64,000 nucleotides of DNA from Okeania sp. SIO2F5 (GCF_010692685.1 NZ_JAAHGU010000008.1:105619-169618); one strand, 5' to 3'; numbered from the stretch's first letter, positions 13,426-50,976 are shown. Notes: a model not told the origin generated them from the sequence alone. Numbers and translations: made by a program.

Positions 13426-13600
13426 TAATTAGGGTTTGCTGAATCAGTGTGCATGGTAAGGGTAGAAGTCAGGATAAACGGGGAATTATAGAGGATATAG
13501 TAGGAAGAATCGTCCCTTGATTTTTTTGCCCAACTCTTGATCAAAATCCTAAATTTTTGAACCATTACCACCTAAAACATTGCACTTTTTGATACTTAAA
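13426..13600. mobile_element. Partial, inverted copy of MITE family 3.
   Basis: The terminal taattagggtttgctgaatcag and the internal segment match the reverse complement of the 47294-47555 copy. Confidence 0.6.
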
Positions 13601-14608: not shown

Positions 14609-14692
14609 GCGGAACTGGCGGAATTGGTAGACGCGCTAGATTCAGGTTCTAGTGTTCGCAAGGACTTCCGGGTTCAAGTCCCGGGTTCCGCA
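14609..14692 (+). tRNA. trnL-CAG: tRNA-Leu (anticodon CAG), type II.
   Basis: The sequence is almost identical to the canonical bacterial tRNA-Leu(CAG) (GCGGAAUUGGUAGACGCGCUAG...UUCAGG...GGGUUCAAGUCCC). CCA is not encoded. Confidence 0.9.
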
Positions 14693-14696
14693 TTAT

Positions 14697-14822
14697 CTAG
14701 TGCTGCTACGCGGAAGTTAAAAATCAAAAATCAAAAATCAAAAATCAAAAATCAAAAATATTGATTGGTAAGGCTTTTAGAATTTTGTAACTGGTTAGTT
14801 ATTCCTACCATCCTGCATTAGG
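14697..14822. mobile_element. MITE family 2 copy inserted 5 bp downstream of tRNA-Leu(CAG). It contains an internal (AAAATCA)5 microsatellite.
   Basis: Terminal inverted repeats ctagtgctgctacgcgg ... cctgcattag, matching the other family-2 copies. Confidence 0.75.
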
Positions 14823-14941
14823 TATATGGAGTATTTCTTGATTAGCGATCAAAATCTAATGGGTAGGAAAATCACAATATCCTGCTCGTGTTTCACTCCT
14901 CAAATAAAATCAGTAATAAATACTAGATAAAAATATAAGTA

Positions 14942-15727
14942 GTGCTGACCAGTTTAAAAAATCCTTTAGTAAAGGAAATCCGTAAGCTTCATCAATCCAA
15001 AGGAAGAAAGGAGAGGCAGTTATTTTTATTAGAAGGAACTCATATCCTAGAAGAAGCTTGCCACAAAAGTTATCCTCTTTTAACTGTATGTTGTACGCCT
15101 GAATGGCAAGAAAGACATCAATTTTTGTGGGAATTATTATCTCAAAAAGCTCAAAGGATAGAATTAGTAAGTGAAAGGGTTTTGAAGTCTCTTACTACTA
15201 CAGTTAATCCTGATGGAATAATAGCTATAGCACCACAAAAGTCAAAAAATTCTGTCAAAATTGCTAGTTTGGGAATTGCTTTGGACAAATTGCAAGACCC
15301 TGGTAATTTTGGTACTATCATCAGGACAGCTACGGCAACAGATGTAGATGGTTTGTGGTTAAGTGCAGATAGTGTGGACTTATATCATCCTAAAGTAGTT
15401 AGAGCTTCAGCAGGGGTATGGTTTAAGTTACCTATGGCAATTTCTGAAAATTTAAAGGCCGAGGTATTAAAGTTACAAAATCAAGGTTTGCAAATTGTAG
15501 CAACAGTACCAAATTCTACTATAAACTATTGGCAGATTGACTTACGAAAACCGACACTAATAATCTTAGGAAATGAGGGTTCTGGTATTTCACAAGATTT
15601 ACTTGAGTTGGCTGATTATTCTGTCAAGATTCCTTTGGGTAACGAAGTGGAATCTTTGAATGTTGCTGTCTGTACAGCAGTAATTTTGTATGAAGTTCAA
15701 CGTCAACGTCAATCTCAATCAAATTAG
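14942..15727 (+). CDS. TrmH/SpoU-family RNA 2'-O-methyltransferase (RlmB-like).
   Basis: SPOUT motifs NFGTIIRTA, GNEGSGIS and SLNVAVCTAVILYE. Confidence 0.8.
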   Translation: MLTSLKNPLVKEIRKLHQSKGRKERQLFLLEGTHILEEACHKSYPLLTVCCTPEWQERHQFLWELLSQKAQRIELVSERVLKSLTTTVNPDGIIAIAPQKSKNSVKIASLGIALDKLQDPGNFGTIIRTATATDVDGLWLSADSVDLYHPKVVRASAGVWFKLPMAISENLKAEVLKLQNQGLQIVATVPNSTINYWQIDLRKPTLIILGNEGSGISQDLLELADYSVKIPLGNEVESLNVAVCTAVILYEVQRQRQSQSN

Positions 15728-35515: not shown

Positions 35516-36445
35516 AAAGTCAAAGAGATACTTGCCATGGAATAAATCATTTATATCTCTCCACCCTTCCACTACTAAAAATTTTCTAGGCACCTCTATA
35601 AATTATCCGAAAAAATCAACAATATTGAGATTTTGCTAGTGTGACAATGACCAAAGTCAAAGAGATACTTGCCATAGAGTAAATCATTTATATCTCTCCA
35701 CCCTTCCACCACTGAAAATTTTCTAGGCAACTCTATAAATTATCCGAAAAAATCAACAATATTGAGATTTTGCTAGTGTGACAATGACCAAAGTCAAAGA
35801 GATACTTGCCATAGAGTAAATCATTTATATCTCTCCACCCTTCCACCACTGAAAATTTTCTAGGCAACTCTATAAATTATCCGAAAAAATCAACAATATA
35901 TATATGGAGTAAATCATTTATATCTCTCCACCCTTCCACCACTAAAAATTTTCTAGGCAACTCTATAAATTATCCGAAAAAATCAACAATATTGAGATTT
36001 TGCTAGTGTGACAATGACCAAAGTCAAAGAGATACTTGCCATAGAGTAAATCATTAGTCAAAGAGATACTTGCCATAGAGTAAATCATTTATATCTCTCC
36101 ACCCTTCCACTACTGAAAATGTTCTAGGCACCTCTATAACTTATCCAAAAAATTCAACAATATTGACCAAAGTCAAAGAGATATTTGTCATAGAGTAAAT
36201 CATTTATATCCCTCCACCCTTGCACCACTGAAAATGTTCTAGGCAACTCTAGAACTTATCCGAAAAATTCAACAATATTGAGATTTTCCTAATGTGACAA
36301 TGACAAAAGTCAAAGAGATATTTCCCATAGAGTAAATCATTTATATCTCTCCACCCTTCCACCACTGAAAATTTTCTAGGCAACTCTATAAATTATCCGA
36401 AAAAATCAACAATATTGAGATTTTCCTGATGTGACAATGACAAAA
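35516..36445. repeat. Tandem array of about 7 units of ~137 bp. Units 3-6 carry indels.
   Basis: The unit is aaagtcaaagagatacttgccatagagtaaatcatttatatctctccacccttccaccactgaaaattttctaggcaactctataaattatccgaaaaaatcaacaatattgagattttgctagtgtgacaatgacc. The array begins 8 nt after the stop of the 604-aa NTPase. There are no ORFs and no unique spacers. Confidence 0.85.
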
Positions 36446-36517
36446 GTTAGACGTTCTTTACTTGATAAAAATCCAATCAACTTCTAAGATTAAATCAACC
36501 ATTCACAAATCAAAAAT

Positions 36518-38629
36518 ATGAAATATCCAAAAGAACCTCTAACATATCCCATCACCCACAAAACAGACATAGTAGAAAATTATCATGGTGTAGAAGTGGC
36601 AGATCCCTATCGATGGTTAGAAGACCCTAATTCAGAAGAAACTCAAGAGTGGGTAAAGGCGCAGAATGAAATTACTTTTAATTATCTCGCAGAAATTTCC
36701 GAAGGAGAAAACATCAAAAAACGACTGACTAAAATCTGGGATTATGAAAAATATAGCGTTCCTTTCAAACAAGGCGATCGCTACTTTTATTACAAAAATG
36801 ATGGTTTACAAAATCAAAGTATTTTATACACTTTGCCTACTCTTGATGCCGAACCAAAAGTTTTGATAGACCCTAATAAATTATCAGAAGATGGAACAGT
36901 CGCTCTTTCGGGAATTGCTATTAGTAAAGACGGCAAATTAATCGCTTATGGTATTTCTAATTCTGGTTCAGACTGGCAAGAATGGCGGATTAAAAATATT
37001 GAGACAGGAGAAGATTTACCAGATGTTTTGCAATGGATAAAATTTAATGTACCAGCTTGGAAAAATGATAATCAAGGTTTGTTTTATAGTCGCTACGAAC
37101 AACCACAAGCAGGAGAATTAGAAGAAACTAATTATTTACAAAAAATTTACTACCATAGTTTAGGTACTCCTCAAAGTGATGATGTACTAATTTATGAAAA
37201 ACCAGAGCGAAAAGAATGGAGTTTTAATTGCTATGTCACGGAAGATAGTAAATATTTAGTTATTACAGTTTGGCAAAGTACAGACCGCAAAAATTTGGTT
37301 TTTTATCAAGATTTAACTATAGAAGATGCGCCGATAGTAGAACTAATTAGTGAGTTTGAAGCCGAATATCGTCTAATTGATAATGATGATAATATCTTTT
37401 GGTTTGTCACAGATTTTGATGCTCCGAAAAGACGAGTTATTGCCATTGATATTAATAATTCTCCATCTCCTTCTTTAGTCACAGGAGAAAATAAGGATAA
37501 ATGGCAAGAAATTATTCCTGAAACAACAGATACATTGAGAGGGGTAGGCACACTTAATAATCAGTTTGTTGCTTTCTATTTAAAAGATGCTCATACTCAG
37601 GTAAAAATATTTAATCTTGATGGTTCCCCAGTCAGAAATGTAGACTTACCCGGAATTGGTTCTGTGGGTGGTTTTTATGGTAAACGTCATGACACAACCA
37701 CATTTTATAGTTATGTTAGTTTCACAACTCCATCAACTATTTATCAGTACGATATGGTAAGTGATGAAAGTAAAATTTATCGCCAACCAACTGTAGATTT
37801 TAATCCTGATGAATTTGAAACCAAGCAAATTTTTTATAGTAGTAAGGATGGTACAAGTATCCCCATGTTTATTACTCATAAAAAAGGTGTAAAGCTAGAT
37901 GGCAATAGCCCAACTATTCTTTATGGATATGGAGGATTTAATATTTCTCTGACTCCCAACTTTTCTATTAGTAGATTAGTTTGGTTAGAGATGGGTGGGG
38001 TATATGCAGTTGCCAATATTCGTGGTGGTGGAGAATATGGTGAAGAGTGGCATAAAGCAGGGATAAAACAACAGAAACAAAATGTATTTGATGACTTTAT
38101 TAGTGCTGCTGAATGGTTGATTGAAAATAAGTGGACTTCATCGAAAAAATTAGCTATTACTGGTGCAAGTAATGGTGGTTTATTGGTAGGTGCTTGTATG
38201 ATTCAAAGACCAGAATTATTTGGTGCAGCTCTACCTGCAGTAGGAGTAATGGATATGTTACGTTTCCATAAATTTACTATTGGTTGGGCATGGGTTGCTG
38301 ATTTTGGTTCTCCAGATAATCCAGAAGAATTTAAAGCTTTATATGCTTATTCTCCTCTACATAATTTAAAGCCTGAAAAATCTTATCCTGCAACTTTAGT
38401 TACTACTGCTGACCATGACGACCGAGTTGTTCCAGCTCATAGTTTTAAGTTTATTTCTGCTTTACAAGCAGCCCATATTGGAGATAATCCAGTATTAATT
38501 AGAATAGAAACTAAAGCAGGTCATGGAGCAGGAAAACCTACTACGAAAATAATTGAAGAAATTACAGACGAATTTGCTTTTTTGCTGAGAAATTTTGAGA
38601 TTGAATTGCCAAAAAATTTTGGTAATTAA
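36518..38629 (+). CDS. Prolyl oligopeptidase (S9A family).
   Basis: Beta-propeller N-terminal domain. Catalytic GGSNGGLL serine motif. C-terminal Asp/His region. Confidence 0.85.
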   Translation: MKYPKEPLTYPITHKTDIVENYHGVEVADPYRWLEDPNSEETQEWVKAQNEITFNYLAEISEGENIKKRLTKIWDYEKYSVPFKQGDRYFYYKNDGLQNQSILYTLPTLDAEPKVLIDPNKLSEDGTVALSGIAISKDGKLIAYGISNSGSDWQEWRIKNIETGEDLPDVLQWIKFNVPAWKNDNQGLFYSRYEQPQAGELEETNYLQKIYYHSLGTPQSDDVLIYEKPERKEWSFNCYVTEDSKYLVITVWQSTDRKNLVFYQDLTIEDAPIVELISEFEAEYRLIDNDDNIFWFVTDFDAPKRRVIAIDINNSPSPSLVTGENKDKWQEIIPETTDTLRGVGTLNNQFVAFYLKDAHTQVKIFNLDGSPVRNVDLPGIGSVGGFYGKRHDTTTFYSYVSFTTPSTIYQYDMVSDESKIYRQPTVDFNPDEFETKQIFYSSKDGTSIPMFITHKKGVKLDGNSPTILYGYGGFNISLTPNFSISRLVWLEMGGVYAVANIRGGGEYGEEWHKAGIKQQKQNVFDDFISAAEWLIENKWTSSKKLAITGASNGGLLVGACMIQRPELFGAALPAVGVMDMLRFHKFTIGWAWVADFGSPDNPEEFKALYAYSPLHNLKPEKSYPATLVTTADHDDRVVPAHSFKFISALQAAHIGDNPVLIRIETKAGHGAGKPTTKIIEEITDEFAFLLRNFEIELPKNFGN

Positions 38630-39164
38630 GGTTTGCTGAAAAAGTCTGATGAGTAAAGGTAGGAGATAAGCATTCAGCATTCAGCGGTCAGCTATTAGCT
38701 TTACTACCTTTAGTGGACAATTTAAGCTCTTTGTTCTTGTGCTTCAGTTCTTTGTTCAAAAATGCAGTAGAAGTTAAGCAAATATTTGGTTCATTCATTT
38801 TTATTGCGCTCGATCTGACTGCTAATAGGTGAATGCTTACGGTAGGAGTAATTTCAGTTATTCAATTATCAGTTACAGCGGATTCTACTTTGGTGAGATA
38901 CACCCATCTTGCATTCATTTAATTGTTAATATCTGTACTTCATGTACTTGGAATCTGCTGTATCAGAAGTTTATCTTTGTTTTATACCCTTGAAAGGGGA
39001 GGCTTGAGACCTTATTTTTTTGTCAGGAGTAAGGAGAATAATAGAGGAGGTAGAAGAAAAAATTGTCTCTTTATTTTTCTGGGTTTAGTTTTTCCTGGAT
39101 ATGGATATTTTAACAGAACCAAAATCAGATTTCTACATCTATAAAAGTTATGAAAAATATCTAA

Positions 39165-39608
39165 TTAAACTCCACAAATACCCCTTTCTTGGTTCCACTG
39201 GTTGTCAACTGATACTGATACTTCTGAACCAGGTTTGACATTACCTCCTGATGTATCGATAAGAACTACATCTGCTGCTCCTAAATAACCACCTCGGTAA
39301 ATTGGTTGACCTTGCTCATTTACAGTATCGTAGGTTAATTCCGAGACTACAGGGGGTAAATCTAGAGAACGATCAAACCTGACTTGAGTAAATAATCCAT
39401 CTACATAGGTTGCTGTATAAGGGTAGCCACCATGATCCAATCCATCACAGTATAAGACCATTGCTGCGTGGGCGAAAGGTACTGGTAGAAAAATTGTGCC
39501 GACAAATAGTAGGACAAATGTTGCTACTAATGTAGCTACTAATTTAGATATTTGTTGTGGGAACTTATGCCACACACTGCTGAAAAACTTAGTCATAAGA
39601 TTGTTCAT
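39165..39608 (-). CDS. Hypothetical signal-anchored protein.
   Basis: N-terminal transmembrane or signal segment. No motifs. Confidence 0.3.
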   Translation of the reverse strand: MNNLMTKFFSSVWHKFPQQISKLVATLVATFVLLFVGTIFLPVPFAHAAMVLYCDGLDHGGYPYTATYVDGLFTQVRFDRSLDLPPVVSELTYDTVNEQGQPIYRGGYLGAADVVLIDTSGGNVKPGSEVSVSVDNQWNQERGICGV

Positions 39609-39812
39609 GTTTTTTCCTCGTTGAAAGATTCAATAAATAGTGAATGTTATGACAATATCAAAAAATTACTCTTCGTCAACAAAATAATTTATTACTCCAA
39701 GTAATGTTTATACTAAAATTTTTCCAGAAGAATTTTATGATGACAAATTTTTGTCCAGAATTTGTTAACAAAAAACTCTTGATTATCCAACCTATTATGT
39801 AGGAGTTAAACA

Positions 39813-40811
39813 ATGTCCTTACAACCTTTGACCATTATCAATGACAACTATCAAGCAGTGAAAAATGATGGACAAGATGTGATTGCCGGATTGAAAAAAA
39901 GTCCCAAGAGTTTGCCACCCAAATATTTTTATGACGATCGCGGTTCAGAACTATTTGAAGAAATTTGTCAGTTACCTGAATATTATCCGACTCGTACAGA
40001 AGCTTCTATTCTAGAGGAATATGCAGATGAAATTGCTCAACTAACTGGATGTTGTGAATTAGTAGAATTAGGCAGTGGTAGTTCGACCAAAACTCGCTTG
40101 TTGTTGGATGCTTATCAAAAAATAGGTGGTTCTTTTAGATATGTACCTACTGATGTAAGTGGGGGAATACTCAAAACTAGCGTACTAGAGCTACAAGAAA
40201 AATATCCAAATTTCTCCATTGAGGGATTTATTGGCACTTATGATGAAACTTTAGCTCATCTAAAGTCAAACCCTACACCAACCTTTTTTGAAGGAACTTC
40301 CCTAAACAGAACAATTTGTTTTCTGGGAAGTTCTGCCGGCAATTTTCCACCACAAGAATTCGACCGTTTTTTGAAGCAAGTTACTGATGCTTTAAAACCA
40401 GGAAATTATTTTTTACTTGGCATTGATTTACAAAAACCCAAAGAAATTTTAGAACCAGCTTATAACGATAGTAAAGGAGTTACAGCTGCTTTTAATTTGA
40501 ATATGTTATCCCATTTGAATTGGCGTTTCCAAGGCAATTTTGACCTCGATTTATTTACTCATAAAGCTATTTATAATCAAGAAAAATCGCAAATAGAAAT
40601 GCGTCTTTATTGTCAAGAAAATGTCACATTCTCTTTGGAAATTCTAGATGTAAAGGTTGATTTTGAGAAAGGGGAAAGTATTCTGACTGAAGTTTCTCGC
40701 AAGTTTGATTTAGCAGTTATTCAAACAGAGCTGGAAACAAAAGGACTTAAAGTTAAGAAAATGTGGACAGACCCTAAAAGATGGTTTGGATTAATTCTTT
40801 GTCAAGCTTAA
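39813..40811 (+). CDS. egtD: L-histidine N-alpha-methyltransferase (ergothioneine biosynthesis).
   Basis: Block-for-block match to EgtD: KSLPPKYFYDDRGSELFEEICQLPEYYPTRTE, VELGSGSSTKTRLLL, GVTAAFNLN, ILTEVSRKF. Shine-Dalgarno AGGAG at -12. Confidence 0.85.
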   Translation: MSLQPLTIINDNYQAVKNDGQDVIAGLKKSPKSLPPKYFYDDRGSELFEEICQLPEYYPTRTEASILEEYADEIAQLTGCCELVELGSGSSTKTRLLLDAYQKIGGSFRYVPTDVSGGILKTSVLELQEKYPNFSIEGFIGTYDETLAHLKSNPTPTFFEGTSLNRTICFLGSSAGNFPPQEFDRFLKQVTDALKPGNYFLLGIDLQKPKEILEPAYNDSKGVTAAFNLNMLSHLNWRFQGNFDLDLFTHKAIYNQEKSQIEMRLYCQENVTFSLEILDVKVDFEKGESILTEVSRKFDLAVIQTELETKGLKVKKMWTDPKRWFGLILCQA

Positions 40812-41178
40812 TTTGAAGGAAGAAGGAAGAAGGAAGAAGGAAGAAAAAAAATATGGTAAACATTTCCTATGGAATGTTGCCCAAAGAGAGGTCATGTCTC
40901 AGCAATTAGTGGGAAAAAACTGTAGGGTTTTGGTTTCCAAATTCCTACGGTAAAATATTAAAACCTATAGCGTTTTCAAATGAAGTGTAAATCTAGATTG
41001 AGGTTTTTTATCATAAAAATAATCCTGTCTTGAGTGCCTACTAATCCTTGTGGAAAGCTACTACTTAATGTTGTTTTCCTTTACTTTCTTTATTACTTAT
41101 TCACAAAAAAACTGAATCCTAAATCTTAAACACCTTGCAAAAGTAAACAATTAAAATTATTTTCCCGTTAATAACACT

Positions 41179-42522
41179 ATGAACCAGATAAAATCTACTA
41201 CTCCACCAAAACTTGATAATAGTAATACTAACAATAAACTACGCCAAGATATCCTTGATTACTTTAACAATGCTTGGCAACTTGAAGATATTTTGATGAA
41301 CAGTCTAGTTGGTGAAGAAACATTTTATTCCAATCCCGACCCTTTGAGAAATCCTTTAATTTTTTATCTCGGACATTCAGCAGTTTTCTACATCAATAAA
41401 TTAATTCGTGTGGAATTATTAGAAAAACGCCTCAACCCTAACTACGAAATATTATTTGAGCTAGGAGTAGATCCAGAAATACCAGAAGAGTTAGACCAAG
41501 CGATCGCCCATATCAACTGGCCTAAACTTGAAGATGTTTGGCAGTATCGAGAAAAAGTCTATCAAATCATTTTGGACCTAATTGAGAAAACCCCTCTAAA
41601 TCTCCCTATCCATCAAAATCATCCTCTGTGGGCATTGATGATGGGTATCGAACATCAACGCATTCATATCGAAACTTCATCCATGTTGTTTCGGCAACTA
41701 CCTGTAGAAAAAGTAAAACGTCCTAGTAATTGGGAATATGCTCCTACAAATGCTAGGCCAATTAATAATGAAATGGTTGAAGTTTCTGGTGGGGTAGTAA
41801 AAATAGGTAAACCAGAAGATAATCCTACTTTTGGTTGGGATATAGAATATGGCGATCGCCAAGTTGAAGTCTCGTCTTTTGTTGCTAGTAAATATTTAAT
41901 TACTAACGCAGATTTTCTAGAATTTGTCAAGTCTGGTGGTTACGAAAATCAAGATTTTTGGACTCAAGAAAGTTGGCATTGGAAAACTGAAAATAACATC
42001 AAACATCCTAAATTTTGGATAGCTGAAAATGGTGGTTATAAATATCGAGCTATGTTTGATGAAATAGATTTACCCTTAGATTGGCCTGTAGAAGTTAATC
42101 ATTATGAAGCAATGGCATATTGTTGTTGGAAAGGTGAAAATACTCGGTTAATGAGTGAAGCTGAATATAATTTAGCAACTTATGGAAATGGTAAAGAAGT
42201 AGAGGTAGATAATTATAATCTAAATTTTAAATTTGGTTCTCCTACTCCTGTTGGTTTATTAGAAACTGCAAAAAATGAATCGGGATTATATGATTTGCGG
42301 GGTAATGTTTGGGAATGGTTAACTGATAATTTGAATCCTCTTTCAGGATTTAAAACTCATCAACTCTATGAAGATTATTCGGCTCCATTTTTTGATAGTC
42401 AACATAATATGATGTTAGGGGGATGTTGGATAACTAATGGAACAGAAGCTTTGAAATATTATCGTAATTGGTTCCGTCCAAACTTTTATCAACACGCTGG
42501 TTTTAGGATTGTTCAAGGGTAG
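41179..42522 (+). CDS. egtB: EgtB-type sulfoxide synthase (DinB_2 domain plus FGE-sulfatase domain).
   Basis: Iron-binding HQRIHIE (HX3HXE). N-terminal DinB-like (PLIFYLGHSAVFYINKL). C-terminal FGE-like (GGCWITNGTEALKYYRNWFRPNFYQHAGFRIVQG). Confidence 0.8.
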   Translation: MNQIKSTTPPKLDNSNTNNKLRQDILDYFNNAWQLEDILMNSLVGEETFYSNPDPLRNPLIFYLGHSAVFYINKLIRVELLEKRLNPNYEILFELGVDPEIPEELDQAIAHINWPKLEDVWQYREKVYQIILDLIEKTPLNLPIHQNHPLWALMMGIEHQRIHIETSSMLFRQLPVEKVKRPSNWEYAPTNARPINNEMVEVSGGVVKIGKPEDNPTFGWDIEYGDRQVEVSSFVASKYLITNADFLEFVKSGGYENQDFWTQESWHWKTENNIKHPKFWIAENGGYKYRAMFDEIDLPLDWPVEVNHYEAMAYCCWKGENTRLMSEAEYNLATYGNGKEVEVDNYNLNFKFGSPTPVGLLETAKNESGLYDLRGNVWEWLTDNLNPLSGFKTHQLYEDYSAPFFDSQHNMMLGGCWITNGTEALKYYRNWFRPNFYQHAGFRIVQG

Positions 42523-42952
42523 TAATAACAGGTAAATAAGCTCTAAATATTCTTGAATAAAACATTCCTCTGGTCTTGGTAAAAATTTGGCATAATTATA
42601 GACTAACAGAAGTTATGACTCAGAAAAAGTTTTACCTACTAACTGACTCAAGCATTATTTTTTCTTATCTGGTATCTAAATGGATTGAAGCTTTTGAAAA
42701 AATGCCAGAATTTCAAGGAATATTAGTTAAAGAGGAAGTTCAATCAAACAAAGTAATTACAGAAAGAAAAAACTTTCATCAAAAATACTTTGGTCAAAAA
42801 AAATTGACTGAAGTTATCTCTGGAAAAGTTAGAAAATTTAGGAAGAGCAATTGATAATTTTAGTAGTTTAGAAGATTTGTCTAATTTGCACCAAGAATCA
42901 GAACAGTAGTAGGTGGTAAATTGACGTTAAAATATTATAGTAAAAGGCTATT

Positions 42953-43318
42953 TTGTCTGGGAAAAGAGTCTTAGAAACGAGTCATACTCCTACCTATTAT
43001 TTTTCCCCCGAAGATATTAAATTAGAACATCTAATTGAAACACCAAAGAAAGGTTTTTGTGAGTGGAAAGGTATTTATCAATATTACGATGTTTGTATTG
43101 GTGAAAAGTATATAAAAAATGCCGCTTGGCGATGTGTTGAACCTACGGCAAATTTTGTAGCTATTCAAGAATACTATAGTTTTGTGGCTGCTTTAATGGA
43201 TGCTTGTTATGTTAATGATGAGTTAGCTACGCCTCAAGCAGGAGATTTTTATGCAGGATGGATTACTGCTGATATTGTCGGGCCATTTAAAGGCGAACCA
43301 GGTACAAGATGGTGGTAA
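42953..43318 (+). CDS. DUF427 family protein.
   Basis: Small beta-rich protein with YYFSPEDI and CEWKGIYQYYDV motifs, recalled as DUF427. Confidence 0.45.
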   Translation: MSGKRVLETSHTPTYYFSPEDIKLEHLIETPKKGFCEWKGIYQYYDVCIGEKYIKNAAWRCVEPTANFVAIQEYYSFVAALMDACYVNDELATPQAGDFYAGWITADIVGPFKGEPGTRWW

Positions 43319-43446
43319 ATAATTAAATAATGAAAATATAAGTAATTGAAAATTAAGACAGTTCTCAAAAAGCAAGCATATGATAATTATTATTTGTTAT
43401 ATAATACTTATAATGACCTTTTTATAACTACAAAATTCAAAATAAT

Positions 43447-44289
43447 ATGAAATTAACAAATGATAATTATAATCCTTCAAAATCTTATTATCAAGCAGAA
43501 AAGTTAGACCTAGATTCATGGTTTCAGGTGACTCAAATAGATTATGAAAAATTAATTGAAGAATATTCATTTAATAATCTATTTAAAGGATTTGCTAAAA
43601 ATAAACTCAAGCTTCTAGATATAGGATGTGGTACTGCTAAATTTCCTAGTTTGTTAGACAAGAAACTTGAGGGCGATATTCATATATCAGCAGATTTACT
43701 TGACATTTCAGAATACTGTCTACAGGTAGCGCAAAAACAATTTGATAGTTGTCAGCATTTTAGTATAAATAAAACCTACTTATCTGGGACAGAAAATCTT
43801 CAACAATTAGTTGAAAAAACTAATAGCTACGATATTATATGGGCAATTCATTCTCTTTGCACTGTCGATCCAAATAGAATGGCAGATGTATATCTTTATT
43901 GTTTAGATTTATTAGGTGATAATGGTAAGTTTTTAATTTATCAACTTGCTGAAAAATCTTCTTACAACAATTTATATAGTTTTTATCTGAGCCATTATGC
44001 AGAACGAAAAAATACCACATATTTTCTAACATCTGAAGACCACAAACAAATTTTGGATACGTTAGGAATAAATTATGAAAATATTAGATTCCGTTTTTCC
44101 CACAGGATAAATTTTGAAAGTAAGAATATACTAGAAATATATTTGAAAAAATGTGTTTTTGATAATACATTAGATGTATTGAATTTTTTTCAACCTATAT
44201 TACAAGAGTCTTTTGATCGAGAAACTAATCAATACCAATTTGAGCAGATAGTTGATTTGCTTATCATTGACGAAGTTAGCAATATTTAG
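43447..44289 (+). CDS. Class-I SAM-dependent methyltransferase.
   Basis: Motif I LDIGCGTAKF. AT-rich codon usage. Confidence 0.6.
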   Translation: MKLTNDNYNPSKSYYQAEKLDLDSWFQVTQIDYEKLIEEYSFNNLFKGFAKNKLKLLDIGCGTAKFPSLLDKKLEGDIHISADLLDISEYCLQVAQKQFDSCQHFSINKTYLSGTENLQQLVEKTNSYDIIWAIHSLCTVDPNRMADVYLYCLDLLGDNGKFLIYQLAEKSSYNNLYSFYLSHYAERKNTTYFLTSEDHKQILDTLGINYENIRFRFSHRINFESKNILEIYLKKCVFDNTLDVLNFFQPILQESFDRETNQYQFEQIVDLLIIDEVSNI

Positions 44290-44310
44290 CAAGATAAGGA
44301 GATAAATTCC

Positions 44311-45666
44311 GTGAAAATAGAAGTGATTAAAATATCTGATTTTACAATTCACGAACATCATCTAAATGTTATCTATAGTGCCGATAAATTTCAATTCTCA
44401 ACAAAAGTTTTTTATCAGGATGTATCTTTCTCTGCCTTGCAACAAAAATACTCTCAAGAACTTATCGAAAAAATAGCAAGTTATATTGCTTTATTTGAAG
44501 GGATGAAGTTATGTTCGTTATTTCCGAAATATTACGATATTTCTAGAATAGCTACACATTTAGAAAAACCTGTTTTAGAATTTTTTGTCAAAATTTATCA
44601 AGGGGTATTTGGTCAGCATTGGTATGAAAATAATATTACAGATTATCAGCAACCAGAATTTATTTATGCACAAGATTTAGGAGAGGCTAATCCTGTATCA
44701 ATATTAGGAGATAATCGTACTATTCTGACAGGTTGTGGCGGTGGTAAAGATAGTATTGTTGCTATGAAAATGTTAGAAGAAGCAAATATTCCTTTTGCCT
44801 CTATGCAATATTCTCATAGTATTTATGGAAAAGCAGATTTACAACATAATTTAATTGCTGGAGTAGTAGCAGAGGTGAATCCAGTTAAAAGTCATAAAAT
44901 TTCTATTTTTGATGATTTTGTTGACTTTCCTCTTTTTCAATTATATTTCCCAGAAAATTCAGGAATTATCGCTCCAGAAACTCCAGTATCTGTCTTTGAA
45001 TCATTATTTTTAATGTTGGATAAAGGATACAATTACTTATGTTTAGCTCACGAAAAAAGTGCTAATACGGGAAATATGTTTTGGGAAGAAATAGGCAGAG
45101 AAGTTAACCATCAATGGGGAAAAGGTCTAGAAGCAGAAAAACTTTTAGACCAATTTATTCGGGATAATCTCTTATCTAATTTTAAATACTTTAGTATCCT
45201 ACAACCTATTTACGACCTTCGTATTTTTCAAAACTTGAGTAAATATCCTGAAGTTATTCCGAAAATTCATTCCTGTAATATTAAAAAACCTTGGTGTAAA
45301 AAATGCCCGAAATGTGCCTATGTTTGGTTAGGGTTAATGGCTTTTTGTCAGACAGATATTGTTGATGAAGTTTTTCAGGTAAATTTATTTGATGATGAAG
45401 ATTTACTGCCGATTTTTCAAGCAATGATAGGTTTATCAACCCATACTCCCTTTGAATGTATTGGCGAAATTGATGAAAGTCGTTTGATGATGAAAAAATG
45501 TCTGGAAAAAGGTTTATCTGGTAAAGCATTAAATATGTTTGCTGAAGAAGTTTTATCGGATACTAGAATTGACTGGGAAAAAATAGAATATAAATATAAT
45601 TCTGTGTATGAAAAAGAACACGCAATCCCGGACTGGTTATTTGAAAAGACTAAAGAAAAATTGTAA
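44311..45666 (+). CDS. PP-loop (SGGKDS-type) ATP pyrophosphatase superfamily protein with C-terminal CX6CX2CX2C cluster.
   Basis: ILTGCGGGKDSIVAM PP-motif at about residue 140. Cys cluster SCNIKKPWCKKCPKCAY. Starts 22 nt after the upstream methyltransferase. Confidence 0.5.
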   Translation: MKIEVIKISDFTIHEHHLNVIYSADKFQFSTKVFYQDVSFSALQQKYSQELIEKIASYIALFEGMKLCSLFPKYYDISRIATHLEKPVLEFFVKIYQGVFGQHWYENNITDYQQPEFIYAQDLGEANPVSILGDNRTILTGCGGGKDSIVAMKMLEEANIPFASMQYSHSIYGKADLQHNLIAGVVAEVNPVKSHKISIFDDFVDFPLFQLYFPENSGIIAPETPVSVFESLFLMLDKGYNYLCLAHEKSANTGNMFWEEIGREVNHQWGKGLEAEKLLDQFIRDNLLSNFKYFSILQPIYDLRIFQNLSKYPEVIPKIHSCNIKKPWCKKCPKCAYVWLGLMAFCQTDIVDEVFQVNLFDDEDLLPIFQAMIGLSTHTPFECIGEIDESRLMMKKCLEKGLSGKALNMFAEEVLSDTRIDWEKIEYKYNSVYEKEHAIPDWLFEKTKEKL

Positions 45667-45856
45667 ATTTAATTGAGAGTAGGGAGTAGGGAGTAGGGAG
45701 TAGGGATAGGGTTCGACCGAATAAAATCTCCTCAGTCTTTTCCTATAATCCTTACAAACATTTTATTACTTAATAACTGAAGTCTTGAGGAAATATCGCG
45801 TGATTTTTGGGAATTGATATAATCAGTAATCAAAGGTAGAGGAAAAAATAGAAAAA

Positions 45857-46801
45857 ATGATGATGGATAGTTTACAAAAATCAGTGATCGCTAACTTTAT
45901 CTCAGACCCAAAACTCAAGCTCGTCAAACTTAATGAGCAAGAATATATGGAGGGACTAATTGCTTATCGCAGTCAGCAAAATGAACAAGAAATAATCCTT
46001 GAAGCTACATTTCAGGCCATAGAAAAATATAAGTCTTCAGAAGAAAGTTACACTATTTTGAGTATAGGTTGTGGCAGTGGAATTTTTGAGAAACCTTTTT
46101 TGACAAAGCTGCTTGAGTTGAACAAATCTATTCATTTTGTTGGAGTAGACCCAAACAAAGTAGAATGTGCAAAAACACAAGAATGGTGTCAGGAACTTAG
46201 CAGATTTAAACCAGAGAAATTTAGATTTAAAATTCATCCGGTTAAATTGGAAAAATTTGAATCATCCCAAAGTTTTGACATCATTCTATTAATTTATTCA
46301 TTTTACTATTTTTCAGAAATTGAATCCTCTTTTGAGAAAATTCACGAACTTCTGAGAGAAGAAGGGATAGCAATTATTGTAATAGCCATAAAAACAGAAA
46401 TAAGCGAACCTTATTACTATGTAAATCAGCGACTTGATCAAAGATCAATGCTTTTTAGCGACGATTTACATCAATTATTTTCTGAACACAATATTTCTGT
46501 TCATCAAGAAATTATAGAATCTCCATTGAATATTACAGAATGTTTTCAGAATGATTCTCATTTGGGTAAACATTTACTAGATTTTATAGTTGGTGCTAAT
46601 ACGACATATTTTTCTCCTTCGCAATTACAAGTATTGCTGGATTATTTGAGCAGCAATTCCCAAAAATTGGAGGGGGGAGAAATTATGATTCCAACTTCTG
46701 TAAGCTTTTATTATTTTCAAAAGCAGAAGGAAGAGGGAAGAAGGAAGAAGGAAGAAGGTTTTAGTTATCTAGGAGAGAAGGAAGAAGGAGGAAGGTTTTA
46801 G
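45857..46801 (+). CDS. Class-I SAM-dependent methyltransferase. The 3' end runs into a (GAAGGAA)n STRR.
   Basis: Motif I LSIGCGSGIFEKP. The last ~30 codons (KQKEEGRRKKEEG...) are translated heptamer repeat. Confidence 0.55.
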   Translation: MMMDSLQKSVIANFISDPKLKLVKLNEQEYMEGLIAYRSQQNEQEIILEATFQAIEKYKSSEESYTILSIGCGSGIFEKPFLTKLLELNKSIHFVGVDPNKVECAKTQEWCQELSRFKPEKFRFKIHPVKLEKFESSQSFDIILLIYSFYYFSEIESSFEKIHELLREEGIAIIVIAIKTEISEPYYYVNQRLDQRSMLFSDDLHQLFSEHNISVHQEIIESPLNITECFQNDSHLGKHLLDFIVGANTTYFSPSQLQVLLDYLSSNSQKLEGGEIMIPTSVSFYYFQKQKEEGRRKKEEGFSYLGEKEEGGRF

Positions 46802-47046
46802 TGTAAGCATTCAGCAATTAGCGGTCAGCTTTCAGGAATTAGTAGTTTAAGGATTTGAGTAATATTGAGTCGTGAGCAAGTAGCTAATTTATTTCAGACT
46901 TTTAATTCTATTAAATCTTTCAAATCTGATTTCTCTTTCAAGGGAAATTAAGTTAATATAAGAAAACTTAAAAAACTATAGAAGCCTAAATTATTGTTGT
47001 CGAGCAAGATTTTATAAGTAATTTTCAAGAGAAATGGAGTAAATTT

Positions 47047-47277
47047 ATGTTTGTCAAAGGAATCAAAAAAGGTAAAATTATTGAGTTATTAGAGGAGGTA
47101 GATTTTCCTGATAATCAAGAGGTTTTAGTAGAAATTAAAAAGGTAGGTGATTTTTGGTCAGCTTTACAAGATTTTAGGAAAAGGGTAGATTTAGAAAGTA
47201 TTGATGACGATTCTTTTGAGAATTTACGGGATAAGTCACCGGGGAGAATGGTTCAACAATTAATAATTAATTATTAA
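47047..47277 (+). CDS. DUF104-like (VapB-type) antitoxin homolog, orphan.
   Basis: N-terminus MFVKGIKKGKIIELLEEVDFPDNQEVLVEIKK. C-terminus ...FENLRDKSPGRMVQ, typical of small antitoxins. No toxin ORF follows, and MITE family 3 starts ~17 nt downstream. Confidence 0.45.
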   Translation: MFVKGIKKGKIIELLEEVDFPDNQEVLVEIKKVGDFWSALQDFRKRVDLESIDDDSFENLRDKSPGRMVQQLIINY

Positions 47278-47293
47278 TTATTAATTATTAATT

Positions 47294-47555
47294 ATTAGGG
47301 TTTGCTGATTAAATATCAAATTATTGACTGATATTGGTTTGAGCAATTTTAGCTCTGGAGGGGGTGCAAGGTTTTAGGTGGTAATGGTTCAAAAATTCAG
47401 GATTTTGGTCAAGAGTTGGGCAGAACTATCTTGGGAAAATTCTTACTCCTACCTCCTCGCTCATTCCCATTTCTCCCCTCCACCGGAGGGGTTAGGGGTG
47501 GGTTGTCTCCTGTCTCCTACCTTCACCCATAAGACTTTTTCAGCAAACCTTAATT
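47294..47555. mobile_element. MITE family 3 copy, adjacent to a (TAATTAT)n microsatellite.
   Basis: Terminal inverted repeats tagggtttgctgatt ... tcagcaaaccttaatta. GC-rich palindromic core cccctccaccggagggg. Confidence 0.75.
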
Positions 47556-47641
47556 AACAATTACCTCTCCTTGAAAAGAAGAGGATTGACTAAAAAGAAA
47601 ATATTTTCTTTTTTCACCTTTAAAGGAGAGGAAAATTAAAT

Positions 47642-48943
47642 CTATTCGTTAATTAATCTATGAATTAAACTATGCCAAATTAAACCAACAATAATTAACC
47701 CTAAACCAACTAACCAAATTTGCTGGTCTACCCAAAAAGCTAAAAACAAACAAGCAGCTAAACCGACCCAACCTAACCACTTAGGATAAAGTCTTTCTTC
47801 TGGAGAAAGTTTCAGAGCAGCAAAATTAGTAATAGCATAATAAATCAAAACATTAAAAGCACTAAAAGACCAAGTAGTCTTCACATCACCAATTAAAACC
47901 AAAAAAGCGATCGCTACTCCCACTACTATCACAGCTATATAAGGAGTAGTTTGCTCATTATTCAATCTAGCAAAAACTCTCGGTACATCTCGCCGACGCC
48001 CCATTGCCAACAAAACCCTGGACAAACCCAAAATTAAATTTAACAATACTCCTAACATTGCCGTCACAGCACCAATAGCAATTAACTTCGGAATTACAGG
48101 AACACCTAAACCTCCTACTTTAGCAATAACCTCTAAAGGAGCAGCTAGACTAACATCTGCTTGAGACAATTTATTAATCACTTCCTGACCAACTACCACA
48201 GTTACTACAGCGATCGATATATATAACAGACAGGTAACTATCATAGTTAAAGCGATCGCTCTCGGAATAGTACGTCGTGGTTCCTTAACCTCCTCCCCCA
48301 AAGTTGCAATACGACCGTAACCAGTATAAGCAACAAACATTAAAGCAGCAGCTTGAAGTAAAGATGCTATAGGTTTATCCCCAGGAAAAAAAGGCGTTAA
48401 ATTTTCCCCAGCAGACCATACTACTTGAGGCACCCCTGCCAAGATAAACAAAACCAGAGAAAATAACGTAATCGAAACAATAATAATATTAGTAAAATTA
48501 GAACGACGAATTCCACTTAACACAACTATTGTTAATACAACCACAGCAGTTAAAGCAGTCAACACCAACCAAGTCTGATTATTGATACCAAAAGCATTCA
48601 ACAAATAACCAGCAAAACCCAAAGCAGCAGTAGCAGCAGAAGCACTTTTCGCCAACAGAAACATCCATCCAGCAATAAAACCCAACCAATGATTCAGATA
48701 TTTATAACCATATTCATAAGTACCGCCACTCACAGGATGGTTTGCTGCTAACTGAGCGCTATTAAAACCATTGCAGATAGCAACAACAGCACCTATTGCC
48801 ACCGCAATAATTACCGATGGACCCGCAATACCAGCAGCAATACCAATACTGACAAATACTCCCGTACCCACAATTGAACCTAAACCCATGAGGGTAGCGC
48901 CGAACACACCAATTTCTCGTCGAAGTAAAGGCGGAGATGTCAT
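47642..48943 (-). CDS. APC-family amino acid permease.
   Basis: 12 predicted transmembrane helices. Glycine-rich helix motifs typical of amino acid/polyamine transporters. Confidence 0.75.
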   Translation of the reverse strand: MTSPPLLRREIGVFGATLMGLGSIVGTGVFVSIGIAAGIAGPSVIIAVAIGAVVAICNGFNSAQLAANHPVSGGTYEYGYKYLNHWLGFIAGWMFLLAKSASAATAALGFAGYLLNAFGINNQTWLVLTALTAVVVLTIVVLSGIRRSNFTNIIIVSITLFSLVLFILAGVPQVVWSAGENLTPFFPGDKPIASLLQAAALMFVAYTGYGRIATLGEEVKEPRRTIPRAIALTMIVTCLLYISIAVVTVVVGQEVINKLSQADVSLAAPLEVIAKVGGLGVPVIPKLIAIGAVTAMLGVLLNLILGLSRVLLAMGRRRDVPRVFARLNNEQTTPYIAVIVVGVAIAFLVLIGDVKTTWSFSAFNVLIYYAITNFAALKLSPEERLYPKWLGWVGLAACLFLAFWVDQQIWLVGLGLIIVGLIWHSLIHRLINE

Positions 48944-48959
48944 GAGATTTTTATCCTTA

Positions 48960-49157
48960 GTATAGTAATATGATTTTAGTTGTGAGATATTGGATACTTT
49001 TAGAGAACAGAGAACAGAGAACAGGGAACAGGGAACAGGGAACAGGGAACAGGGAAGAAGAAAAAAATAAAATATATCAATAAGATAACTGCTATATTCC
49101 TTCCTTTAAAGGAACACCTCAATTCTCACATCTGATTCGGTGATTGCTATATTTTTG
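48960..49157. repeat. Second copy of the ~170-bp start-proximal element, here with (AGAACAG/GGAACAG)n in the middle.
   Basis: See 27443-27615. Confidence 0.7.
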
Positions 49158-49369
49158 TTTTTTATATAGCAGAAGGAAAAATCTGGCGTTGTCTGAATTT
49201 TAAGCATTTGATATGTCCGCCCCCTTTGCTTCGATTGCTATAGAATCCTTATGGTATCTTTGCACGGGGTACGGGTTTTTGGCAAAGGAGTCATTTCAGT
49301 AGGGGTTATATCAAATCCTTTCGGGTTCGGTATAAAAAAATGTTCCATCTGAGCGCCATTGCCACATCT

Positions 49370-49555
49370 TTCTCGATATCCCCACCTCTCCATCTCCCCA
49401 TCTCCCCACACTCCCCACACTCCCCACACTCCCCACACTTCCCACCCTCTTTCTTCCTTCTTCCTTCTTCCTTCTTCCTTCTTCCTTCTTCCTTCTTCCT
49501 TCTTCCTTCTTCCTTCTTCCTTCAGACTTCAGACTTCAGACTTCAGACTTCAGAA
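49370..49555. repeat. Compound STRR block: (CCCCACACT)n, (TTCCTTC)12, (AGACTTC)4.
   Basis: Perfect tandem heptamer and nonamer repeats. All ORFs called here are repeat artefacts. Confidence 0.9.
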
Positions 49556-50976
49556 GCATCTCCACCAACAACAACATTCCTAATACGCAAACTCGGACCG
49601 CCACAACCAACAGGTAAACCATCTTGCCCACCCTTACCACAACCCCCTGACTCATCCCAATAAAAATCATCGCCGATCGCCTCAATATCAGCCAAAGTCT
49701 CAAACACATTTCCAGAAAGAGTCACATCCCGCACGGGTTCAGCTAACTTACCATTTCTAATCATCCAAGCTTCTCCAGCACTGAAAGTAAACATTTCCCC
49801 ATTAGTCATTCCACCCAACCAGTTGCGAGCATAAACTCCCTCCTTAATATCAGTAAATAAATCTGAAGTAGGAGTATTTCCTGGTGCTATCCAAGTATTA
49901 GTCATCCTGACTATAGGTGGATAATGATAATCAAGACAACGTGCATTACCCGTAGGTGCTTCTCCCAATTTTCCCGCAGTCTCCCGCGAGTGTAAACGTC
50001 CTACCAAAACACCATCTTGAATCAACTGGGTAGTAGTTGCTGGAGTACCTTCATCATCATATATATAACTACCCCGATGTACTTCTTCTTCTACATTATT
50101 ATTTAGCAAAGGCGACACCTTAGCACCATCAAATATTTGTAAATTTTCAGGACCAAACCTCCGACCAATTGTCATCACTTCCAATAAATCGGGATTTTCA
50201 TAGACCATATCTGCTTCCGAGAGATGACCAAAAGCTTCGTGAACAAATAGACCTGTGAGAATTGGGTCAATAACTACAGTGTAAGTATTACCTTGAACAA
50301 TAGGCAAAGCTAGAGAATTCACAGCTCTTTCCGCAGCACTACGAACATAATTATCTAAATTAGTTAAATCTTCATAAGCTTTGCGGGAACCAGTAGTTTC
50401 CCTACCTGTTTGTACGGTTTCCCCATCCCTGGCGGTGGCAGCAAAACGTATTTCCATATCTACCCAAGATTGTTCTAGCATAGTGCCTTCGGAAGTAGCG
50501 AGAATTACTTTTTGGGTACTATCCCCATAACGAACAGATACGGTGGCAATTCGACCATCAACACTCCGCAATATTTGGCCATAATGTTCGCATAGTTCTT
50601 TTTTGTTGGCCAAAGATATATGGCGTGGATCTGTACCTGTGAGATGAACTGCATGAGTTGCTTGAATTATGGGGATGGGAGCTAGAATTGTTTCTTCTTC
50701 TCCAATCAATTTGGCCACAGCGATCGCTTCTTCTATTCTGTCTTTCAAGGTTGAGAGTTGATTAAAGCTGGCAAAACCCCAACCTCCTCGGTAACAAGCT
50801 CGAACTTGACCACCTATGGAAAGACCTTCGCTTAGGGTTTCTATTTTGTTGCCTCGCAAGAGAATATCTGTTCCTTGAGATTCTTCTAGGCGAATGGCCA
50901 GATAATCCACTTGAGAACTATAATTAGCGAGCAAGTCGGATAACATATTTTTTGCGTCAGTCAGTAATACAGGCAT
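49543..50976 (-). CDS. TldD/PmbA-family metallopeptidase.
   Basis: Conserved TldD/PmbA blocks throughout. The stop codon TGA is supplied by the first unit of the (AGTCTGA)n STRR. Confidence 0.75.
   Translation of the reverse strand: MPVLLTDAKNMLSDLLANYSSQVDYLAIRLEESQGTDILLRGNKIETLSEGLSIGGQVRACYRGGWGFASFNQLSTLKDRIEEAIAVAKLIGEEETILAPIPIIQATHAVHLTGTDPRHISLANKKELCEHYGQILRSVDGRIATVSVRYGDSTQKVILATSEGTMLEQSWVDMEIRFAATARDGETVQTGRETTGSRKAYEDLTNLDNYVRSAAERAVNSLALPIVQGNTYTVVIDPILTGLFVHEAFGHLSEADMVYENPDLLEVMTIGRRFGPENLQIFDGAKVSPLLNNNVEEEVHRGSYIYDDEGTPATTTQLIQDGVLVGRLHSRETAGKLGEAPTGNARCLDYHYPPIVRMTNTWIAPGNTPTSDLFTDIKEGVYARNWLGGMTNGEMFTFSAGEAWMIRNGKLAEPVRDVTLSGNVFETLADIEAIGDDFYWDESGGCGKGGQDGLPVGCGGPSLRIRNVVVGGDASEV

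Follow-up and report, generated by a model that had tools for sequence, protein, structure and literature searches.

Gene content of the egtD locus

The 64-kb stretch of DNA analysed here (the window; Okeania sp. SIO2F5, NZ_JAAHGU010000008.1:105619-169618) contains a group of genes for ergothioneine-type metabolism, in which egtD and a sulfoxide synthase gene are followed by genes for a DUF427 protein, a MurL-like PP-loop enzyme and two S-adenosylmethionine (SAM) methyltransferases, referred to as MT1 and MT2. Positions are counted on the whole window (Table 1); L-numbers denote species loci and P-numbers denote family proteins. The six co-oriented open reading frames (ORFs) that had been listed in an earlier note on this DNA are all found by ORF calling, each on the plus strand and at the positions given there, and the gaps that follow the sulfoxide synthase gene measure about 430, 128, 21 and 190 bp (430, 129, 22 and 190 bp in the note). 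The motifs quoted in it, YYPTRTE, VELGSGSSTKTRLLL and GVTAAFNLN of EgtD, HQRIHIE of the sulfoxide synthase and the cysteine cluster HSCNIKKPWCKKCPKC, are each present in the translations. This is also the case for two of its more general remarks: the downstream genes are more AT-rich, if modestly so (GC content of 0.27-0.33, as compared with 0.33-0.37 for egtD and the sulfoxide synthase gene), and the ORFs of the region include neither egtE nor egtC. The six-gene arrangement is not an artefact of the window, because it is repeated in a second public contig (GCA_010692585.1, 8.5 kb), which is 99.988% identical across window positions 39419-47939.

Table 1. Positions of the genes of the locus and of related features in the window and in other loci.
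Feature	Sequence	Position	Strand	Description
egtD, L-histidine N-alpha-trimethyltransferase (hercynine-making)	window	39813-40811	+	332 aa; TIGR03438, PF10017
Sulfoxide synthase, OvoA-derived cyanobacterial type ('EgtB-IV')	window	41179-42522	+	447 aa; DinB_2 + FGE-sulfatase; TIGR04344
Formyltransferase-like gene, 5' remnant	window	42576-42811	+	92-aa ORF extends to 42854; junction 42811/42812
Rpn-family PD-(D/E)XK 'transposase'-like gene, 3' remnant	window	42812-42921	+	alignment to L003, L001, L052
DUF427 gene, 5'-truncated	window	42953-43318	+	121 aa, TTG start; PF04248
MT1, HNMT-like class I SAM methyltransferase	window	43447-44289	+	280 aa; PDB-sequence profile match
MurL-like PP-loop (QueC-fold) ATP-dependent enzyme	window	44311-45666	+	451 aa; NF041275, MurL_N + MurL_epimerase_C
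MT2, HNMT-like SAM methyltransferase	window	45857-46801	+	314 aa; 3' end enters heptamer repeat
147-aa protein, upstream of and divergent from egtD	window	39165-39608	-	hydrophobic N-terminus; no family match
107-aa ORF	window	49340-49663		translation of heptamer repeats
MT2 tandem copies	L001 (Okeania SIO2C9)	11397-15187		four copies
MT2 tandem copies	L003 (O. hirsuta)	11393-13217		two copies
Rpn-family PD-(D/E)XK 'transposase'-like gene	L003	6772-7734		inside the cluster
Rpn-family PD-(D/E)XK 'transposase'-like gene	L052	8117-9133		inside the cluster
Radical-SAM protein, ~510 aa	L082	11359-12921
Radical-SAM protein, ~510 aa	L045	1876-3420
Radical-SAM protein, ~510 aa	L079	11474-12994
Radical-SAM protein, ~510 aa	L080	11340-12944
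Tryptophan-halogenase-family flavoenzyme	L070	2815-4557		immediately upstream of EgtD

The first gene of the group codes for EgtD, as claimed without reservation in the note: the protein passes TIGR03438 with 394 bits (cut-off 290.9) over profile positions 3-301 of 301, and it matches PF10017 with E = 7e-116. The assignment of the second gene to EgtB, which was thought to be equally unambiguous, holds only in part. The DinB_2 and FGE domains and the HQRIHIE motif are there, but the protein falls short of the EgtB model TIGR03440 (197.7 bits, cut-off 360) and passes the OvoA N-terminal model TIGR04344 (613.8 bits, cut-off 400). No match to the OvoA C-terminal N-pi-methyltransferase domain (TIGR04345) is found in this protein, which ends at 447 aa; the full-length OvoA of L077 scores 317 bits on the same model (cut-off 170). 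Judged from these profile scores, the window enzyme is an OvoA-derived cyanobacterial enzyme of the kind called EgtB-IV, and not a true EgtB.

Passages in PMC8433421, PMC11030361 and PMC11993508, all of which cite Liao & Seebeck 2017, describe OvoA-like enzymes that make the ergothioneine precursor in cyanobacteria, and an OvoA-EgtD cluster has been reported in Cylindrospermopsis and Microcystis (PMC8433421). The window agrees with this pathway in that egtD adjoins the gene of the OvoA-like sulfoxide synthase, and the same gene pair is carried by Raphidiopsis brookii D9 (L036). From the adjacency of egtD and from the literature (PMC8433421, PMC11030361), we infer that the window enzyme would catalyse the C2 sulfurisation of hercynine. 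The difference lies in the DUF427, MurL-like and radical-SAM genes, which are located a few kb from, or directly beside, the EgtD/EgtB-IV pair; the published accounts searched do not mention DUF427, MurL-like, radical-SAM or HNMT-like genes.

The MurL-like enzyme and its genomic partners

The 451-aa protein had been described as an SGGKDS-type PP-loop ATPase with a C-terminal Cys cluster. Both the PP-loop and the cluster are found, but the loop reads G-C-G-G-G-K-D-S and not SGGKDS. The GGGKDS motif (residues 143-148) is invariant across 73 family members, and this is also the case for Cys322, Cys329, Cys332 and Cys335 (Cx6CxxCxxC) and for Cys383 in the FECIGE motif. With its PP-loop motif and Rossmann-like fold the protein belongs to the PP-loop ATP pyrophosphatases (adenine nucleotide alpha-hydrolases), and its AF2 model has a predicted local distance difference test (pLDDT) score of 95. 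In fold, the protein comes closest to QueC and Cap9, two PP-loop proteins of the QueC type. Of these, QueC acts by adenylating a carboxylate, and its Cys site equivalent to the four-Cys site of the window protein binds zinc. The differences from QueC and Cap9 are considerable: the sequence identity is ~11%, the 451-aa protein has extra N- and C-terminal domains, and no queuosine or cyclic oligonucleotide-based antiphage signalling (CBASS) genes occur near the window gene. A search of PDB sequences with the 451-aa protein gave nothing significant.

The only curated family matched by the protein is MurL (NF041275), with 140.6 bits against a cut-off of 700, and this model aligns to residues 83-448 only, leaving the N-terminal ~85 residues outside. 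The precomputed Pfam annotation gives MurL_N and MurL_epimerase_C, and the protein thus has the two-domain layout of the MurL superfamily together with the GGGKDS, NHQ and FxCxG motifs and the four cysteines. An exhaustive HMMER search returns 1,901 representative clusters at E <= 1e-3. Among the family members that are ~30-34% identical to the window protein are 830-920-aa fusions to a complete MurD-type Mur ligase (the metagenomic proteins P0392, P0400, P0417, P0418 and P0422), which are taken to be the genuine MurL (peptidoglycan) branch. The window protein and these fusions have in common GGGKDS, E248, S250, NHQ266-268, K271, SCN321-323, C329, C332, C335, F-[E/D]-C383-x-G and E389, and the clade of the window protein differs from them at K66, Y172-G173, H320, K326-P327 and C397. 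When searched by tblastn with three MurD-like C-terminal halves, neither the 80 loci described below nor the window contains a Mur ligase. The window protein therefore differs from MurL in lacking the MurD2 partner, in a score far under the cut-off, in its unlike N-terminal ~85 residues and in having DUF427 and Egt genes as partners. The conclusion suggested by the conserved residues is that the catalytic machinery would be the same as that of MurL and the substrate different. MurL consumes ATP, releases AMP and epimerises from L to D only, and its proposed mechanism proceeds by adenylation of the alpha-carboxylate (PMC8788868, PMC5808125). Low-similarity homologues of MurL in cyanobacteria have been remarked on before, with no function assigned (PMC5808125).

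The protein is 95% identical to that of Okeania sp. SIO2C9. When compared with the Okeania relatives, the ratio of nonsynonymous to synonymous substitution rates (dN/dS) is 0.18-0.20 for the MurL-like gene, 0.14-0.17 for the sulfoxide synthase gene and 0.28-0.33 for egtD. The family protein P0364 resembles a DAO-MurL-like fusion; neither half is complete, it could be an artefact of gene calling, and it is not used as evidence.

Relatives of the 451-aa protein are encoded at 80 species-level loci, the neighbouring ORFs of which were clustered without prior labels; the cyanobacterial clade accounts for 59 of them. The commonest neighbours are DUF427 (45 loci), a sulfoxide synthase of EgtB/OvoA type (30 loci) and EgtD (27 loci), followed by a ~510-aa radical-SAM protein (21 loci), a fused OpuA-type betaine permease/binding protein (14 loci), porins and MscS channels. 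In cyanobacteria, DUF427 is found within 300 bp of the MurL-like gene in 35/59 loci and within 10 kb in 45/59, usually on the same strand, and in ~11 loci the two ORFs, as called here, are 0-3 bp apart. EgtD or a sulfoxide synthase occurs within 10 kb in 33/59 loci, and in 22/33 when at least 8 kb of flanking sequence is available on both sides; the chance of such proximity is estimated by us at ~0.3%, considering two single-copy genes in a genome of ~6 Mb. The gaps between EgtD and the MurL-like gene are 18-264 bp in L030, L040, L045 and L056. For Cylindrospermum stagnale PCC 7417, whose genome is complete, the public gene calls give, in this order, an FGE-sulfatase sulfoxide synthase, EgtD, MscS, DUF427, the MurL-like protein and Radical_SAM; the genes of the MurL-like protein and Radical_SAM share 4 bp, and there is an OpuA-type ABC transporter opposite.

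The same association is observed outside cyanobacteria, where the MurL-like family adjoins Egt, OvoA or radical-SAM genes in Chloroflexota, Bacteroidota, Alphaproteobacteria and Beggiatoaceae. The Bacteroidota locus L076 contains a true EgtB, EgtD, a BCCT transporter and the MurL-like gene; in Thiomargarita (L080), a divergent class-V aminotransferase, the MurL-like gene and the radical-SAM gene face EgtD and EgtB on the opposite strand; Parabeggiatoa (L079) has a P-type ATPase, the MurL-like gene, the radical-SAM gene and EgtD. In Caldilineaceae (L070), a halogenase-like gene and EgtD are followed further along by a P-type ATPase, the radical-SAM gene and the MurL-like gene, and in the alphaproteobacterial locus L077 a full-length OvoA, both domains of which pass their models, abuts the MurL-like ORF. 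The EgtB proteins of L076 and L080 score 552 and 567 bits on TIGR03440, and all EgtD-like neighbours tested pass TIGR03438. Three distinct sulfoxide synthases are therefore found beside the family, namely the OvoA-derived cyanobacterial type, true EgtB and full-length OvoA, and in a neighbour-joining tree the Egt-linked members fall into at least two separate clades. The co-occurrence that the earlier note proposed to look for is thus seen, since homologues of the 451-aa protein and of DUF427 travel with the egtD and sulfoxide synthase genes in many cyanobacteria. Neither of the patterns it named as signs of a fortuitous juxtaposition, downstream genes mostly without egtD and egtB or membership of a well-known unrelated pathway, is found in the 80 loci.

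The radical-SAM partner is conserved across phyla and tightly coupled to the MurL-like gene; it is not present in the window. It occurs in L082 and 21 other loci (examples in Table 1) and has a CxxxCxxC motif and a Rossmann-like N-terminal domain. Its matches are weak (B12-rSAM/HpnR) or marginal (RimO), and no relative was found in the PDB. For DUF427, a full-length orthologue models onto PDB entry 3DJM (E = 2e-9, template modelling (TM) score of 0.88 on the target), and a Foldseek search with the model has this uncharacterised structure as its sole match. DUF427 has been placed in the beta-tent fold group, without the zinc site (PMC4287342). The cyanobacterial subfamily differs from 3DJM by a conserved N-terminal PGQESVWDYPRP segment and a C-terminal extension of ~45 aa, and the window copy is moreover truncated. 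A literature lead that placed DUF427 after glutamine riboswitches proved mistaken, the domain in question being DUF4278.

The earlier note had counted the two methyltransferases as part of the set. The survey of neighbours in the 80 loci shows them to be lineage-specific additions outside the conserved core: beside the MurL-like gene they are confined to Okeania/Trichodesmium, Moorena, Roseofilum-type and some Calothrix-type loci, and MT1 orthologues only in Okeania and two Calothrix-type loci. In Pfam, both have generic class I methyltransferase matches only. When the family profiles are compared with PDB sequences, MT2 matches human histamine N-methyltransferase (HNMT) with E = 3.4e-15 over positions 28-258 of 289 (next best 8e-6), and MT1 matches it with E = 1.4e-8 over positions 50-221 of 280 (next best 1e-3); HNMT chains are the only PDB relatives of MT1 at E < 1e-3. 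The likeness extends beyond the SAM-binding core, since MT2 aligns over nearly its full length and MT1 over ~170 residues, although MT1 and MT2 are bacterial proteins of low identity to HNMT. HNMT itself methylates an imidazole ring nitrogen, and the resemblance to this imidazole-ring N-methylase fits a methylated histidine-derived product. MT1 and MT2 are distantly related to each other (hhalign probability 95%) and are unrelated to the C-terminal N-pi-methyltransferase of OvoA beyond the SAM motif. A precedent for a stand-alone ring N-methylase is OvsM of the selenohistidine cluster (PMC11030361). The two proteins are candidates for lineage-specific tailoring, and from their sequence likeness they may methylate an imidazole ring, a possibility to which somewhat less than an even chance is given. 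The dN/dS of MT2 is relatively high (0.45-0.57 against the Okeania relatives), and its gene is present in one to four tandem copies in the relatives, with four in Okeania SIO2C9, two in O. hirsuta and one in the window. It was also considered that MT1 and MT2 functionally replace DUF427, which is absent in L001, L019, L021, L023 and L032, loci in which the MurL-like gene has a methyltransferase gene immediately beside it; L002, L003 and L052 have both DUF427 and a methyltransferase.

Proposed chemistry and alternative explanations

The locus is interpreted as a cyanobacterial ergothioneine cluster, consisting of EgtD and an OvoA-derived sulfoxide synthase, joined to a conserved, uncharacterised accessory module. 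When the chemistry proposed below is included, this interpretation is evenly balanced between right and wrong. The core of the module is the MurL-family PP-loop enzyme, which in cyanobacteria is paired with the 164-aa DUF427 protein and often with the ~510-aa radical-SAM protein, and its functional link to thiohistidine/hercynine metabolism is very probably real. It is likely, from its motifs, that the MurL-like enzyme adenylates a carboxylate; that it epimerises a hercynine- or ergothioneine-type substrate is a tentative suggestion made by analogy with MurL. Most likely, the chemistry is carboxylate adenylation or epimerisation rather than sulfur insertion. The tailored thiohistidine envisaged in the earlier note is therefore retained in so far as the genomic context supports it and the HNMT-like methyltransferases fit it; the sulfur insertion by the PP-loop enzyme is not.

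In the proposed scheme, the MurL-like enzyme would use ATP to adenylate the carboxylate of a metabolite of the histidine-betaine or thiohistidine pathway, with hercynine, ergothioneine and the cysteine-sulfoxide adduct as candidate substrates and an ovothiol-pathway metabolite as a further one. As in MurL, adenylation would make the alpha-carbon reactive, leading to an epimerisation in the L-to-D direction only or to a related step that begins with loss of the alpha-proton. DUF427, and the radical-SAM protein where present, would perform or assist a further step, and in the Okeania/Trichodesmium lineage the added MT1 and MT2 families would methylate the imidazole ring of the product. A route driven by ATP would be a logical alternative to a pyridoxal phosphate (PLP) racemase, the use of which the alpha-amine, acylated in the MurL substrate and quaternised in hercynine, would prevent. 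It is possible, if rather doubtful, that this represents a widespread, unrecognised step on hercynine, ergothioneine or ovothiol intermediates, carried out by a MurL-like enzyme with DUF427 in cyanobacteria and a radical-SAM protein in many lineages, for example an ATP-driven L-to-D epimerisation that in Okeania and Trichodesmium is then followed by HNMT-like ring methylation.

The pairing of egtD with an OvoA-like gene is already known, and its recurrent tie to MurL-like, DUF427 and radical-SAM genes appears to be new: no link of MurL, DUF427 or radical SAM to ergothioneine or hercynine was found in the literature searched, most subscription journals being outside it. The pathways to ergothioneine and ovothiol, with a methyltransferase, a sulfoxide synthase and a lyase, are generally regarded as complete in essence. 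The recurrence of the module alongside their genes in at least five phyla, and with three sulfoxide synthases that evolved independently, implies that a reaction or a product is missing. To our knowledge, MurL is so far the sole epimerase that consumes ATP; if its family also acts on a second class of substrate, ATP-driven epimerase chemistry would be broader. If the interpretation is correct, there would be a further family of thiohistidine natural products, and the MurL enzyme class would gain a second function; modified thiohistidines, possibly D-configured or methylated on the ring, could also come to light in bloom-forming marine cyanobacteria.

Several observations weigh against this interpretation. 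In 26/59 cyanobacterial loci no Egt gene is found within 10 kb, although many of these contigs are short. In other clades of the family the linked gene codes instead for a DAO-type FAD oxidase or an EctC-like cupin, from which it follows that the substrate varies across the family. DUF427 is absent from the non-cyanobacterial loci and is therefore dispensable for the core chemistry. The likeness of MT1 and MT2 to HNMT is moderate and says nothing direct on their substrate, and we know of no D-configured or ring-methylated ergothioneine from cyanobacteria. Betaine transporters and MscS channels are abundant among the neighbours, which fits a compatible-solute island equally well.

In such a stress or compatible-solute island there would be no shared substrate, the MurL-like, DUF427 and radical-SAM proteins would make or recycle some other osmolyte or betaine, and the genes would merely be co-located and co-regulated with the Egt genes. 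The recurrence of fused OpuA-type proteins, BCCT/SSF transporters, MscS and, in one clade, EctC-like cupins is in agreement with this, as are the 26 loci just mentioned. It is nevertheless considered unlikely, given the operon-tight adjacency to EgtD or a sulfoxide synthase in several phyla (L030, L040, L045, L056, L077, L079) and the recruitment beside three types of sulfoxide synthase, which is hard to explain without a shared pathway. The earlier note had compared the PP-loop ATPase with sulfur inserters of the TtcA/TtuA/Ncs6/LarE type. If the PP-loop enzyme were a sulfur transferase of the TtuA, NcsA or LarE kind, adenylation would be followed by the delivery of sulfide from a four-Cys Fe-S cluster, giving a thiocarboxylate or an alternative sulfur insertion. 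Here the likeness is at the level of the fold only: none of the thiolation or thiolase families of Pfam and NCBIfam matches the 451-aa protein at E <= 0.01, MurL being its sole curated match, and the best folds are those of QueC and Cap9, with the zinc-binding site of QueC in the equivalent position. In addition, the adjacent sulfoxide synthase already supplies sulfur insertion, and the same cysteines and motifs occur in the Mur-ligase-fused members, the characterised MurL transferring no sulfur (PMC8788868). This explanation is thus improbable, and the likeness drawn in the note is not upheld by the sequence.

It is equally improbable that the MurL-like enzyme and DUF427 are a PLP-independent substitute for EgtE or OvoB, in which the cysteinyl carboxylate is adenylated and beta-elimination releases the thiohistidine. 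Such a substitute would account for the absence of an EgtE/OvoB gene from most clusters, including that of the window; C-S cleavage is the step common to the ergothioneine-type and ovothiol-type pathways, with both of which the family is associated, and the chemistry of MurL begins with activation of the alpha-carbon. However, many ergothioneine producers keep the lyase elsewhere in the genome, Thiomargarita (L080) has an EgtE-like class-V aminotransferase directly beside the MurL-like gene, and several loci have EgtD without a nearby sulfoxide synthase. Finally, the juxtaposition would be fortuitous if the 451-aa protein were a genuine MurL making D-Glu for peptidoglycan. Some public sources do name its homologues 'UDP-N-acetyl-alpha-D-muramoyl-L-alanyl-L-glutamate epimerase', and the catalytic motifs are conserved. 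This explanation is essentially excluded by the score of 141 bits against a cut-off of 700, the ~30-34% identity to the MurL-MurD fusions, the N-terminal ~85 residues that do not align to the MurL model, the lack of any Mur-ligase homologue in the 80 loci or the window, and the strong linkage to DUF427 and Egt genes. The MurD2/MurL pathway is also reported for bacteria without other routes to D-Glu, and cyanobacteria are not listed among them (PMC8788868).

Two clades of the family have partners of a different kind. In L061-L065 and L067 (Babeliaceae, Chlamydiota, Legionella gresilensis, Verrucomicrobia) the gene immediately upstream of the MurL-like gene is always that of a DAO-family FAD oxidase similar to N-methyl-tryptophan or sarcosine oxidase, which suggests an epimerase-plus-oxidase pair in intracellular bacteria. 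In L057-L059 (Desulfonema, Leptolyngbyaceae, Oculatellaceae) it adjoins a solitary EctC-like cupin and a fusion of a solute-binding and a glycine-transporter domain.

Deletions at the locus and minor features

The locus was compared with those of Okeania hirsuta (L003), Okeania SIO2C9 (L001) and a Trichodesmium metagenome-assembled genome (L052). The gap between the sulfoxide synthase and DUF427 genes has about the length given in the note, but it is not empty, and holds the remnants of a formyltransferase-like gene and of an Rpn-family PD-(D/E)XK gene. Window positions 42522-42811 align with L003 5032-5321, the start of a 288-aa PF00551 (Formyl_trans_N) protein. At 42811/42812 the alignment to L003 skips 2.3 kb, a stretch that also includes a small SET-domain ORF, and resumes with ~110 bp (42812-42921) aligning with L003 7637-7746, L001 8848-8951 and L052 9036-9185, in each case the end of an ORF that matches PF12784/TIGR01784. 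Because its last ~110 bp survive at the deletion junction, it is suggested that the Rpn-family transposase-like element, which lies inside the cluster of the relatives, took part in the rearrangement. Between the sulfoxide synthase and DUF427 genes, the relatives carry the formyltransferase-like (PF00551) and small SET-domain genes (L003 5125-5991 and 6190-6480; L052 5873-6766); these are further candidates for tailoring, lost in the window.

A second deletion took a stretch with the first ~45 codons of DUF427. The domain named in the note is recognised (PF04248, 74.7 bits), but the gene is truncated at its 5' end and the domain is incomplete, the match covering profile positions 17-92 of 93, as compared with 1-92 in the orthologues. 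These are uniformly 164-165 aa long in public annotation, and their N-terminal PGQESVWDYPRP...VLAET segment is near-invariant. The window copy starts at orthologue residue 46, so that the missing segment comprises three beta-strands of the predicted fold, and it has P55T in the near-invariant SHPP motif. By these features it is a probable pseudogene or crippled copy. Against decay stands its dN/dS of 0.22-0.32, which shows no clear relaxation when compared with the intact orthologues (0.16-0.26); the loss is therefore either recent or tolerated. The egt-linked module is partly decayed here, neighbouring genes having been lost in two deletions together with the first 45 codons of DUF427, and for this reason the module may be impaired in this genome.

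An Rfam scan of window positions 36000-50000 for riboswitches in the intergenic gaps gave no match above chance, and a promoter and terminator scan of the locus gave counts at the level of shuffled sequence. The 147-aa protein encoded upstream of egtD is 90-93% conserved, at the same position, in the Okeania relatives L001 and L003. Short tandem heptamer repeats occur in the intergenic spaces at 40815-40845, 45677-45711, 46725-46758, 47259-47297, 49005-49056 and 49379-49554, with units that include GAAGGAA, GAGTAGG, AGAAGGA, ATTAATT, GAACAGG and TTCTTCC; they look like the short tandemly repeated repetitive (STRR) elements of cyanobacteria. The repeat at 46725-46758 enters the 3' end of the MT2 ORF, giving the protein its KEEGRRKKEEG tail, and the 107-aa ORF of Table 1 is a mere translation of such repeats.

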